Below are positions 22,922-36,349 of a stretch of 64,000 nt of DNA, one piece after another; position 1 is the stretch's first letter, and every line of letters begins with the position of its first letter. The stretch spans positions 60,880 to 124,879 of the forward strand of contig CAXHJY010000724.1 in the NCBI GenBank assembly GCA_964016885.1. The letters run 5' to 3'. Source of the stretch: Eledone cirrhosa (lineage: Eukaryota). The notes under the pieces were generated by a model, which was given only the letters and a program-made list of their open reading frames with translations, had not been told where the DNA came from and ran no database searches. A program made the translations under genes and the position numbers.

Positions 22922-23665
22922 TATATATATATATATATATATATATATATATATATATATATATATATATATATATATATTTATATATATACATATTTAT
23001 ATATACATATATGTATATGGAATACTGTTGGCTTTTTGCTACAATATTTTCTATACATTTCATTTTATATATATGTATATATATAATATTAGAAAGTGAG
23101 GTTTTTGACAAAGTGAAAAATAACGTAGGTGTCCTACACGACTGAAATTATAAAGAAAAAAAAGATAAAATCGAAAATGCAACTGGAATCTTATTTAAAA
23201 AAATATAAATATATTAATTTGGTTCCTTTACCGGTTTTCGAAACCGGTAAAGGACCAAATAAATATATACATTTTTCTTAAAATAAGACTCCAGTTGCAT
23301 TTTTGATTTCCTATTTTTATCTGTATATATATATGTGTATATATATATATATATATATATATATATATATATATATATATATATATATATATATATATAT
23401 ATATATATATATATATATATATATATGTGTGTGTTAATATATATATATATATATATATATATATATATATATATATATATATATATATATATATATATAT
23501 GTATATATATATAGATATATATAGATATATATATATAGATATATATATATATATATATATATATATATATATACATATATATATATATATATATATATAT
23601 ATATAAACACACACATATATATATGTATATATATATATTTTTACATATATATATATATATATATA
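22922..23665. repeat. (TA)n microsatellite-rich block; many more (TA)n/(CA)n tracts occur at 24-36 kb and 54-58 kb
   Basis: Directly visible. Confidence 0.95.
23089..23322. mobile_element. Short palindromic PLE-like insertion, family A copy 1
   Basis: About 85-bp inverted arms centred on CCTTTACCGGTTTTCGAAACCGGTAAAGG, plus a one-sided tail of about 60 nt. Second copy at 25164-25470. Flanked by (TA)n. Confidence 0.7.
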
Positions 23666-23673
23666 CAAATGAA

Positions 23674-23790
23674 GGCTTATGGTGGAGTGGTTAGAGAATT
23701 GGATTTGCAATCACGAGGTTGTGTGTTCGAATCCTGGAGCAAGACACTTTATTTGACGTTGCTCCATGTTCCTGGAGTAGCGACCGATAG
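23674..23790 (+). mobile_element. tRNA-derived SINE head (second family)
   Basis: A box TGGTGGAGTGG and B box GTTCGAATCC at tRNA-like spacing, followed by GAGCAAGACACTTTATTT. Confidence 0.7.
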
Positions 23791-23894
23791 AGGTATTAGC
23801 AATTGAAAAGATAAACGGAAACATTGTTTCCTAGATCCAATTTGACGAAAGTCGATCATTCCTTTATATATATATATACATATATATATATATA

Positions 23895-24101
23895 TAGGTA
23901 CGAGCAGGACCCCGACGGCTGAGCTCAATTCGTTTCGTCAGCTAATTCTGGACGCAATTAGCAGTCGAGAATTAGCGGTCGAAACGGCTTGAGCTCAGCC
24001 GTCGGGGTCCTACTCGTTCCTATTACCCACTCTACTACCCTAAGTATTGAGTACTTTGGTGCGTCATTGTCCACCTGGTTCCTTACCACATTTCCTCCGT
24101 T
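23895..24101. mobile_element. Short palindromic insertion, family B copy 1, with HHR 3' half
   Basis: About 59-bp inverted arms and a 79-nt tail. Contains GAAACGGC-TTGAGCTCA-GCCGTC at 23981-24003. Lies in (TA)n. Related copy at 32844-33048. Confidence 0.7.
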
Positions 24102-24329
24102 ATATATATATATATATATATATATATATATATATATATATATATATATATATACACTCATTCTGGTCACATAAATCGTAATTGAATTATCACAATCAGT
24201 GAAGTCGGATTTGATTTATAAAGATGTTCGTCATATTTACTCAAGTGAATATTAAGTAATACGCAGTAAACCTACGTATGATAACACTCTACAATATATT
24301 GTGGTTTGTGTTAGTTTAACTACAGGGGA

Positions 24330-25140
24330 AATCCTAATCAAGAAGGCCTATGACCAGCAATATGATAATACCAAAATGATAATACCCATTGCAGCCATGC
24401 GATCAAAGGCCTGATCCGTTTGCTTGGCAAAGTGTACAACTATCTTTAAACATAACCTCCAGTAGACACAAGGCGTGTGAGTAAAATATGTTAAACAAAG
24501 ATGGTAATTAAGTCACTTAAATGGATTGTATCTTTAAGTCAAATTTCCAACCCATGCACCGTCACACTGGATATGTCTGGGGAAGATTCTACAAGGAAAA
24601 TGTGTTTATAAGGTACTCACGTTTAGACTCCAATTCTATGAGTTAGAATTTACCTTAACCAAATGCCTAAAACAATCATCAGCAAACCAAATCATCTATT
24701 TACTCGAATATAACTGTTGTTTTGTTTTGTATCTGTTGATGAGCTATACTGTGTTTCTGGCTTGCCATTTTTTTGAATTCTGGAATTTGGATAGCTAACA
24801 ATCATAGAATTAACATTTTATATATTCATATTTAAAAATATAAAACCAGGTAGCAAATATCAACAAATCTTAATATGTAAGATTAGAAAATCCAGCATTT
24901 GCAAATATATTCTGCCAGACAAAATAAAGCAAACAAATGTTATGCAATATTTTTCGGTATTACGATGCTGTCCGAGCAACATGTGTTATACAAAATATAG
25001 AACAGACACCTTTTGACCATTGGAGGACGTGAATTTCAGCAGCATGACAACAGAAATAAATGTAAAGATGTAATGCATTTAAATATACAACAATCTGCAA
25101 GAAGGTTTATGAGAACGAAATATTAAAGCGCGTGAAGGGA
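24330..25140 (+). pseudogene. Possible highly decayed PLE-type RT fossil
   Basis: Broken-frame traces in RT order: TVTLDM (compare LVTLDV), IYLLEY, SGL, IANN, IFRYYD (compare RYIDD). Confidence 0.3.
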
Positions 25141-25163
25141 AAACTAATATATATATATATATA

Positions 25164-33257: not shown

Positions 33258-33325
33258 TTCTATTATACATATTTCAGAGGTACTGAAACAAGTTCAACAG
33301 TACGTCCTCATCAGGTAAAATAAAA
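33258..33325 (-). ncRNA. Minimal hammerhead ribozyme motif (slightly degenerate)
   Basis: Minus strand reads UUUUAUUUUAC-CUGAUGA-GGAcGUACUG..CAGUACcUCU-GAAA-UAU-GUAUAAUAGAA. Confidence 0.65.
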
Positions 33326-33999
33326 TGATACATGACATACCCTGAGATGTTAATTGGTTAGGATTTAATCAAGGTAGTGATTAACTTATAAGAAAACTCA
33401 ATATGTATACCCTAATATTGAGAACAAGCGAAAACTTAATAGAATGAATAGAGAGGGTGTGAGTAAGAAAAACATTGCCTTAATGCAACAGTTATAGAGT
33501 TTTTAAAATTTGAAATACTACTATAGAACTATAGAGGAAGACGTATCTGGAGTTATAATTTATTTAGTATTTAGCTTGAGAAGACAACTGACAGATAATT
33601 AAAGAGAGGGAGAGACAAAGGGGAGTAATTTATGCTCAAATTTTCTTTAGACACACTTAAAAACATATAAAGCTTTGGCGGTTAAATTTCAAAATATATA
33701 ACATGTTATTTTAGGGAAAAGAATCAAAATTTTAGGCTTTAAAAGCTGATGGTTATTTGTATTAATTTTAGAATATAATTGTGTTAAATTTCTAAAATTC
33801 AAAGTTTTATGTAAACAAATTTAAAGGATTTACGACGCCCGTGAAAGAAAAGAATATAATGATCTCACAAAGGTAATCTTTAACAAAATTACTTGTAACA
33901 CTGATAACATTATCTATAATAATTTATGAGATTTTACAGTTATAACTATTAAGGAATTTAGTATTAAGTCATTATATTAGTTCTACCTTATAGTGAAGA

Positions 34000-34140
34000 C
34001 CGAACTCTAATTATGATTATGTTATTATACGATATAAATATATTTGTACAAACTATATATAGAGATATACCGAACTATAATTATGATTATGTTATTATAC
34101 AATATAAACATATTTGCACAAACTATATATAGAGATATAC
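34000..34140. repeat. 70-bp tandem duplication
   Basis: CCGAACT.TAATTATGATTATG... at 34000 and 34070. Confidence 0.9.
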
Positions 34141-34177
34141 TAAGTATTAATGAGACGGTATACAATTAATAAATAAT

Positions 34178-34363
34178 TGTTTTTACTTTTGGCACAAGGC
34201 CATCAATTATCCCAGTGCATTACTGGTACTTTAGTTTATCGACCCCGTAAGGATGAAAGGCAAAGTCAACCTCGGCGGGATTTGAACTCAGATCGTAAAG
34301 GGACGTAACTATGCTGGAAAGCATGGTGTCTGACCCTCTACCGATACTGCCAATCCACCGCCC
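34178..34363 (-). mobile_element. Full-length tRNA-derived SINE with 17-bp TSD
   Basis: B box GAGTTCAAATCC. TSD TACAATTAATAAATAAT at 34161-34177 and 34365-34381. Confidence 0.9.
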
Positions 34364-34443
34364 TTACAATTAATAAATAATAACGATTATAATCTTTGTT
34401 AGTGGTTCCGTACATGTGTAACTACGATTATCTTATTACACTA

Positions 34444-34627
34444 GGTGGTGGATTGGCAGTATCGCTAGAGGGTCGGACGCCATGCTTTCCAGCATAGTTA
34501 CGTCCCTTTGCGGTCTGAGTTCAAATCCCACCGAGGTTAACTTTGCCTTTCATCCTTACGGGGTCGATAAAATAAAGTACCAGTAATGCACTGGGTAATT
34601 GATGGCCTTGTGCCAAAAATAGAAACA
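34444..34627 (+). mobile_element. Full-length tRNA-derived SINE with about 17-bp TSD
   Basis: A-box-like TGGCAGTATCG and B box GAGTTCAAATCC. TSD ATTATCTTATTACACTA at 34427-34443 and 34628-34644. Confidence 0.9.
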
Positions 34628-36349
34628 ATTATCTTATTACACTAGATATATATTTATAATAAAATTTAATTGCTCACAAGAATATCTATTTTGTTAATAT
34701 TTGAATTAATATTAATAACTCTGGAAAATATCTCTTGTAGAATGCTTCCAATCTACTGTAAAACTCATTCTTTGATGTACTCATTGAATCTTGTTTAACT
34801 CTTTAATATATATATATATATATATATATATATATATACCTATGTCAGGTCGCTCTAGTGTGCTACTCTTAAGATGTACGCCAGTACAATCTGTCTCATG
34901 GTCGAGTCGTCGGAGACTAAACCGGCAACCCCACCGAGCTTGCTTGGTGAAGAGGGTGATATTTGGACACCTGCCCAGTGAAATACAAGATCCGGCAAAG
35001 AGCGGGAGAACTCAGCTGAGTCAACGGCCATCGAAATAGTACTTACTACTTTTTTTTCACCTGTGAGTGTAAGGCCCGCAGTTATTGTCGCAACACCATT
35101 CTAAATGAGGGATACATGCTGCTTCGGAAGCATCCGATGATATTGATCAGTTCTCCTTTTCGGGTAAGGTTTTCGATCCTCAGAGAGTGGGATTGGTCCA
35201 GTGTGAAAGGCCTTTCCCCACTAAAAAAAATATATATATTATTGCTTGTTCAGGAACAGGTTCGTGTCGCTGGCCCGTAATCTAAAAGTGCACCATTTTC
35301 TAAAATTTGACAAGCGATTGCACAGAGTTTGCAATCATCATATCTATTTATCTATCTATCTATCTATCTCTCTCTCTATATATATATATATGTATGTATG
35401 TGTGTGTGTGTGTGTTTGTGTGTGTGTGATTGTGTGTTTGTGTGTGTGCGTGTGTGTGTTTGTGTGTGTGTGTGTGCGTGTCCATGTGTCTGTGTCTGTG
35501 TGTATTCACAAACTATTACTTACATTTACTTTCCTATTTAAATTGTGCCTCGCCCTCCGCACTCACGCCATATAATCTCCATAACTGGCCCCTTTGTCAA
35601 TCTAGTTATATTTGTTACTAAGTACATTCCGTTTCACCCCGTGTCTTTCTCTTTGTGATTCTTTGCTTTTCTCAATCCCTACCATTTAAAATGTTTCGTG
35701 CATCCCTTGTTTCTCTCTCTCCCTTTCTTAACTTTGCATTCTTTCTTACAACTACATTAACTCAAATCCTTTCTTATTTCCCTTCAATACGTGTCTTTTA
35801 GTTTTCTACCATACATTCTCTCATTAGTCTAACCCCCTTTGTTTACTGAATCTCTCTCGTGTTTCACTCGCCCTTCTCCCTCTGCTTCACAATATATATA
35901 TATATATATATATATATATATATATATATATATATATATATATATATATATATATATATATATATGTATATATATATATATAAATATATATATATATATC
36001 TCCACACACACACACATACACGCTCACACACACACACACACACACATATATATATATATATATATATATATATGTATTTATATATATGTATATATATATA
36101 TATGTATATGTGTGTGTGTGTGTCTGTGTATATATATGTATATGTATATATATATATATACATACATATATATATGTGTGTGTGTGTGTGTGTGTGTGTA
36201 TCTTTATTTTTCTTTCTCATTATATTTCTCGATGACCCATCTCCATTAATCTCTATACTGCTTCATCTCGCTTTCCCATCATATCCCCATACGCATCCAC
36301 TATCTCCTCTACTTTTAACTTCAATATACCATTTCTTAAGCAGCCGGCG

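Follow-up and report, generated by a model that had tools for sequence, protein, structure and literature searches.

Six head-to-head insertions and their Penelope-like partners

The window analysed here is a 64,000-nucleotide stretch of DNA from Eledone cirrhosa (assembly GCA_964016885.1, contig CAXHJY010000724.1, positions 60,880 to 124,879, forward strand). It contains six insertions of four repeat families, designated A to D, in which two copies of an element's 3' end face each other head to head. A preliminary description of this DNA had reported them, and the window sequence, self-BLAST and mapping on long copies found all six close to where it had placed them, with (TA)n near both ends of each (Table 1). 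Positions along the arms were assigned from the window sequence, self-BLAST and alignment to real long copies; offsets are nucleotides counted back from the end of the tail, and +1 is the inferred start in each family. Within an insertion, the long arm carries the one-sided tail and the short arm ends at an internal TA-like site, at -61 (A), -78 (B), -41 (C) or -94 (D) by BLAST. The tails of 60, 79, 49 and 95 nt described earlier fall inside, or adjoin, the range made ambiguous by TA microhomology. Across 80 evenly spaced 10-kb stretches of the genome, the fixed TA-like end was recovered for 18 of 20 head-to-head pairs, and the two pairs ending elsewhere were older copies. The earlier statement that the short arm always stops at such a site was too strong, as a long-long pair (locus L102), a near long-long pair (L073) and a short-short pair (L137) were observed.

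Family D differs in outline, its short arm exceeding 1 kb against 156 nt for the tail-bearing arm. The apparent palindrome at its centre consists of two repeats that we take to be short interspersed elements (SINEs), each with its own direct repeat. The first B copy folds as a hairpin (z -11.8; 0 of 200 shuffles). Further (TA)n-flanked repeats lie beside the first A and B copies (22700-22920 and 23666-23860, with a degenerate hammerhead-like box at 22729), and similar sequence recurs at L046, L124 and L044.

Genome searches with the tail alone, or weighted towards it (30 loci per family, the best-scoring of 40 scored), followed by upstream walking, yielded palindromes, solo stumps and long copies. 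They linked the tails of all four families to Penelope-like elements (PLEs) with open reading frames (ORFs) elsewhere in the genome, and each of the four family ends is shown to be the pseudo-long terminal repeat (pLTR) of such an element. The partner of A (L275, unit of 4257 nt) has the order inverted pLTR copy, pLTR, reverse transcriptase (RT) and GIY-YIG frames, 3' untranslated region (UTR), pLTR; its Pfam matches are RVT_1 (E 1.3e-4, below the curated cut-off) and GIY-YIG (E 7e-8). The partners of C (L162 and L163, units of 3318 and 3290 nt) match RVT_1 with E 7e-6, again below the curated cut-off, and GIY-YIG with E 2.4e-3. Pfam gave no match on the frames of B and D. The B partner (L155, unit of 3564 nt) was assigned through a YRDD motif and a GIY-YIG-like stretch aligning to that of A (E 2e-6), and its ORF has 247 homologues, mostly of about 700 amino acids (aa). 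Family D was assigned through its likeness to B, as the tail at L274 runs into an ORF 41-44% identical to that of B; at L154 the end of an ORF lies upstream of the D UTR. The partner copies examined are broken, and partial-tandem pLTRs flank the ORF at L275, L155, L162, L163 and L274. From their motifs, we take A to be Neptune-like, B and D to be Nematis-like and C to be Poseidon-like.

The window itself holds, at 19680-20900, a 406-aa frame resembling the B/D ORF from the end of the RT to the start of the GIY-YIG domain. Additionally, three D copies (L151, L152 and L153) have in common some 1.8 kb of upstream non-coding DNA that includes 70- and 130-bp repeats. They begin near -1780, have no ORF and possibly represent a non-autonomous D subfamily.

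Table 1. Window coordinates of the six insertions, their arms and the repeats nested in family D
Feature	Position	Strand	Arms and remarks
A1 (family A, copy 1), whole	23089-23327		arms -150/-152
A1 tail-bearing arm	23089..23237	-	-150..0; without hammerhead core
A1 inverted short arm	23239..23327	+	-152..-61; centre in stem III palindrome near predicted cut
B1 (family B, copy 1), whole	23894-24101		arms -138/-137
B1 short arm	23894..23953	-	-137..-78; extends to inferred start; hammerhead 3' half only
B1 long arm	23963..24101	+	-138..0; 78-nt tail; without core box
A2 (family A, copy 2), whole	25164-25473		arms -195/-178
A2 long arm	25164..25363	-	-195..0; hammerhead disrupted by local deletion/duplication
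A2 short arm	25361..25473	+	-178..-61; intact-looking predicted minimal hammerhead, U3-A8 type
C insertion, whole	28636-29296		arms -332/-368
C long arm	28636..28967	-	-332..0; 1-nt insertion alters first hammerhead-like box
C short arm	28969..29296	+	-368..-41; 4 nt short of inferred start; hammerhead-like fold, atypical first box
B2 (family B, second subfamily), whole	32844-33049		arms -141/-139
B2 long arm	32844..32985	-	-141..0; without core
B2 short arm	32988..33049	+	-139..-78
D insertion, whole	33210-34806
D short arm	33210..34444	-	>1 kb of 3' UTR/pLTR, SINE-interrupted; sole hammerhead of the insertion, core at 33314
Presumed SINE in D	34159..34381	+	own ~16-bp direct repeat; later insertion
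Second presumed SINE, opposite orientation	34428..34645	-	own ~16-bp direct repeat
D tail-bearing arm	34650..34806	+	-156..0; 94-nt tail; without hammerhead core

Paired arms, inner ends and the inferred start

End and pair counts were restricted to arms that extend to a 3' site and have an identity of 82% or more, and the pair set comprised 83 rows after removal of listed duplicates and of loci selected by a whole palindrome. A long arm was joined to a short one in 80 of these rows. (TA)n followed the 3' end in 256 of 270 arms (this count and those of inner ends retain a few near-duplicate loci); the two 3' sites, spaced by the tail, each have 2-4 nt of TA-like identity to the target. The arms of one insertion also tend to share subfamily letters: a 10-nt diagnostic block was identical between them in 23 of 30 B copies, against an expected fraction of 0.20, and the mismatches were mostly single letters.

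The preliminary description had proposed either double priming or fold-back on (TA)n. In the latter, the 3' end of the complementary DNA (cDNA) snaps back and extends itself to the inner site, and endonuclease resolution leaves the tail. Such a route would give the strict asymmetry and the concordance of the arms for free, near-perfect palindromic centres are common, and both self-priming, from palindromic junctions (PMC3846280), and endonuclease resolution of the tail (PMC8557442) have been proposed for PLEs. However, it is the short arm whose 5' extent is the greater by more than 10 nt in 22 of the 83 rows (one of them the long-long pair), against 11 rows for the long arm; at L108 and L118 the short arm extends to -372 against -147 and -165, and the D insertion of the window behaves likewise. 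Since a fold-back copy cannot exceed its template, these rows call for two priming events unless every one reflects a later deletion, and short arms too begin at +1 with an extra G. Fold-back is thus unlikely as the general route, while the Penelope origin and the stereotyped double priming of the earlier proposal are supported.

Inner ends gather at one position per family. Those within -5 to +6 of the inferred start amounted to 41 of 62 in A (start at -213), 64 of 102 in B (-138), 7 of 45 in C (-372) and 6 of 42 in D (-262). Family A had none in the next 50 nt upstream, and in stretches picked by position 26 of 32 B ends lay at the start. Where unpaired stumps adjoin (TA)n, their ends lie at the same wall as those of paired ones, so the wall is independent of palindrome formation. 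The site at each peak reads YYA, with the boundary between the second pyrimidine and the A. A TATA box lies 30 nt (A) or 31 nt (D) upstream of +1 and a TATA-like box 29 nt upstream in B, in keeping with the spacing rule for TATA promoters; C has none.

An extra base, often G, precedes +1. Genome-wide, 713 D arms carried a non-template base before +1, compared with 148 at a control site that shares the template base and lies 5 nt further in; among the first 100 rows tallied by hand, G/A/T were 39/6/55 against 14/21/65 in the control (G vs A, p 1.5e-5). In A, 1175 matches gave about 49 G per 100 by hand tally, as a count without a control. Reading of 60 loci with the extra base identified 54 true ends and 6 mutated long copies, and G made up 18 of the 30 bases explained by neither the partner arm nor the target (p 0.002 vs 1/3). 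A separate count of extra G (18 vs 5) included palindrome-selected loci and becomes weak, at about 9 vs 4, once they are left aside. An extra G is the trace expected of cap copying. Some B arms (L136, L256, L022) have runs of T directly before +1, which suggests addition of A at the cDNA 3' end.

Judged from these sequence patterns, the palindrome centre appears to be set by the transcription start and not by the hammerhead. We consider it probable that the insertions are stumps of four autonomous PLEs, formed by reverse transcription from two primers that runs off the 5' end of the transcript. The endonuclease would nick both strands of a (TA)n tract, after which the two target 3' ends would prime on a single RNA, one of them at its inner site and the other at its outer site. 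The pLTR promoter would be no more than 140-370 nt upstream of these two sites, so that a transcript starting there could give nothing but stumps. Each cDNA would halt at or before the RNA 5' end and gain a C there, either copied from the cap or added terminally. Head-to-head joining of the cDNA ends would follow, through microhomology, template jumping or repair. Read-through RNA begun in an upstream pLTR would be the source of long and full-length copies; in D. virilis, the Penelope transcript does start inside the upstream pLTR (PMC2377424). We infer both the joining step and the rule of one site per strand. A PLE protein assayed in vitro copied uncut RNA from two internal sites, one at either end of the tail, and extended both strands of the target (PMC11167929). 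A stricter form, in which twin priming on one RNA is obligate, with one fixed site per strand, and ordinary transcripts give only strong-stop-like run-off stumps ending at the cap, has in our judgment an even chance of being correct.

Several points weigh against two-primer run-off. The pile-up of inner ends is weak in C and D by BLAST ends, C lacks a TATA box, and an arm ends at the inferred start in only three of the six window copies (B1, B2 and C). The start sites were deduced from DNA sequence, the TATA boxes were noticed after the peak, and the D. virilis Penelope promoter is TATA-less and internal (PMC2377424). In an in vitro assay, the R2 polymerase placed untemplated G and T at junctions (PMC13000458), so the extra G marks the end of a template and not necessarily a cap. 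Both strands used the same start sites in vitro (PMC11167929), by which the strict long-plus-short pairing is not explained, and some long arms could have been shortened by later deletions. Finally, a start-site pile-up predicted beforehand for two further families of the window, E and F, failed in both: in F, 5' ends lay anywhere between -109 and positions beyond -1580 and none of 30 loci had an inverted arm, and the failure in E could be explained, after the fact, by a circular or tandem template without a 5' end.

Hammerheads, unit copying and RNA processing

The preliminary description had placed a hammerhead in both arms of every insertion and, in families A to C, the centre at or shortly 5' of it. 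Neither claim was confirmed. Both hammerhead boxes are present in 3 of the 12 window arms (the short arms of A2, of D and, despite its atypical first box, of C), and no insertion has them twice. Moreover, the centre of B lies inside stem II, about 43 nt 3' of a U3-A8 core at -181, so both B arms lack the core and keep only the 3' half of the motif, and the centre of A1 lies in stem III. A canonical core directly before the B centre was rejected as a candidate, with no match; the actual core is the U3-A8 variant upstream. The predicted motifs were recognised by eye in the pLTRs of A and B (U3-A8) and D, and in atypical form in C. Rfam returned no hammerhead over the whole window, only sub-threshold microRNA (miRNA) matches on the hairpins.

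That hammerhead cleavage or structure determines the centres is improbable. In every family the centres do lie no more than about 110 nt from the motif, the A1 and D insertions end near the predicted cut, and the B centre is within stem II; nevertheless, only 6 of 251 inner ends lie at the predicted cut (A 3, B 0, C 2, D 1). The peaks sit upstream of the core by 42 nt (A), 83 nt (C) and 64 nt (D), B arms stop after and not before the 3' strand of the stem, and ribozyme mutants left insertion in vitro unchanged (PMC11167929). The hammerhead would then be a passenger, usually lost or split. The motif of C (29030-29090, also at L162) has a minimal-hammerhead-like fold with the first box CAGUUGA plus one extra U, and is a candidate natural core variant. 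In the B partner (L155:8370-8460), stem II contains the inferred start and, in its 5' strand, the TATA-like box, so only read-through RNA could carry a complete B ribozyme.

The suggestion that A to D are non-autonomous retrozyme-like families in their own right fared no better. Copying of the mini-palindromes as whole units, as in retrozymes or miniature inverted-repeat transposable elements (MITEs), would account for the dominance of stumps in B, where 11 of 20 tail-bearing arms were paired in the 800 kb of the 80 sampled stretches (4 of 6 in A, 2 of 3 in C and 0 of 2 in D). It would also suit the recurrence of one junction in several copies and the identical B palindromes that stand in tandem, with a short TA run between them, at L022/L023 and L251, probably through local duplication. 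On the contrary, B junctions are mostly unique, and the commonest recurs on at least three subfamily backgrounds. All four ends are those of elements with ORFs, the TATA box upstream is missing from the stumps, most arms are without a full ribozyme, and no head-to-tail monomer directly follows the tail in any of 120 tail-selected loci. Non-LTR retrozymes are defined by head-to-tail monomers that each hold a full ribozyme (PMC7229834; bioRxiv 10.64898/2026.07.22.740005); a tandem of 150-450 bp units was not found in A to D, nor was one complete type I hammerhead per unit, given the box counts above. Instead of the symmetric terminal inverted repeats and fixed interior, copied as a unit, of a MITE or foldback element, these families have a one-sided tail, variable centres and PLE partners. 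Unit copying is accordingly very improbable. Extrapolated from the 11 and 4 paired stumps in 800 kb to a 3.0-Gb genome, the palindromes would number very roughly 39,000 for B and 14,000 for A.

Family E, which the preliminary description had missed, is the better retrozyme candidate, being retrozyme-like in outline. Present in the window at 26006-26510, 26562-27036 and 27810-28089, and also at L283-L285 and L305-L308, it is arranged head to tail in units of about 450-540 nt, and 18 of the 27 rows listed continue into the previous unit. No ORF was seen in it; it has a predicted minimal hammerhead (core 26346, minus strand), internal (TA)n, PLE-style inverted arms and a tail of about 60 nt. Its copy at 26006-26510 adds a seventh insertion to the six built on this plan; there, an extended short arm meets an arm that consists of the tail only. 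Family F (window 27180-27650; L310-L339) has a canonical minimal hammerhead at 27528 and a 3' end in (TA)n, and upstream of it more than 1.5 kb of C-rich non-coding sequence was walked, in which no ORF was reached.

The wall at the 5' end could also be an RNA processing site, such as a splice acceptor or another cut, in place of a promoter start. AG stands at the wall in A, B and C, preceded by a pyrimidine run in B, and the intron of D. virilis Penelope ends at the 5' edge of the ribozyme (PMC4209133). But the stumps retain the AG, unlike a spliced exon, D has none, and the TATA spacing and the extra G match a start site, which leaves processing with very little probability. An assembly or read fold-back artefact, conceivable because (TA)n hairpins are hard to assemble, is ruled out by well over 100 loci with distinct flanks, by diverged arms, by nested SINEs with their own duplications and by short-read contigs, 73 of which in run X1 (a sample that is possibly that of the assembly) join the short-arm end to (AT)n. 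Two other organisms (organisms B and C) yielded just 2 contigs and 1 contig matching the family B stump, too few for use.

Elsewhere in the window, many frames resembling those of long interspersed elements were noted by eye (2852-17846, 37512-48309 and 58168-63504), the last interval being a two-ORF element with frames of 557 and 1098 aa; no host gene was evident there.

Relation to known systems and significance

In the twin priming of L1 elements, a single RNA is primed by both strands of the target and microhomology joins the resulting cDNAs; the outcome is an inversion of non-overlapping parts. In the present families, the two cDNAs overlap, giving an inverted duplication. The closest relatives of this architecture are insertions of endonuclease-bearing (EN+) PLEs, described as a pLTR with an adjacent inverted 5'-truncated copy, a one-sided tail and a microsatellite bias (PMC8557442, PMC3846280). 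The head-to-head inverted copy, the one-sided tail and the microsatellite target are shared with them (also PMC2377424), as is the partner with RT and C-terminal GIY-YIG; the hammerhead motif read by eye in the pLTR would be a further likeness, and L275 and L163 represent the textbook full form. Unlike what is reported there, the tails are 41-95 nt instead of 30-40 nt, stumps outnumber long copies, and inner ends are fixed at the inferred start. The anole Poseidon protein PAc (PMC11167929) likewise starts at two sites, one on each side of the tail, extends both strands of the target and can dispense with the ribozyme. In contrast, both sites here are TA-like to the target and would be used one per strand, and neither the inverted arm nor a run-off where the transcript begins is dealt with in the accessible part of the PAc account.

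The minimal PLE hammerheads of PMC4209133 share with ours the U3-A8 core variant (A and B) and the palindromic stem III. They also occur as opposite-strand pairs 100-700 bp apart, attributed in that work to truncated PLEs, as they do here; the differences are that most of our arms have a split or lost ribozyme, the first box of C is atypical and the B start lies inside stem II. Compared with non-LTR retrozymes (PMC7229834; bioRxiv 10.64898/2026.07.22.740005), A to D are similarly small, non-coding, hammerhead-related and PLE-linked, but full-ribozyme head-to-tail monomers are absent from them and present, in outline, in E. A search of the open-access literature found no account that ties PLE palindrome centres to a transcription start, or that explains them by run-off or twin priming; subscription papers and supplements, among which Fig. 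S2 of PMC11167929 may bear on the matter, were outside its scope. The sections of PMC13282606 available to us hold nothing on stump architecture.

The architecture is already known, and it is the mechanism that becomes sharper. How the tandem and inverted ends of PLEs form has been posed as an open question (PMC8557442). The genomic record from Eledone speaks against simple self-priming, links the position of the centre with the transcript 5' end rather than with the ribozyme, and supplies exact sites for each family, namely two priming sites and one run-off site. Furthermore, it carries a warning for annotation, prompted by the sub-threshold miRNA matches on these hairpins: the palindromes are not separate MITE, miRNA or retrozyme families. 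If obligate twin priming holds, a single model would cover both the inverted pLTR and the tail, would explain why tandem copies are needed and would account for mini-hairpins in the tens of thousands; PLE transcription starts could then be mapped from genomic stumps. Should host promoters transcribe them, these short hairpins, given such numbers, could also feed double-stranded RNA pathways.

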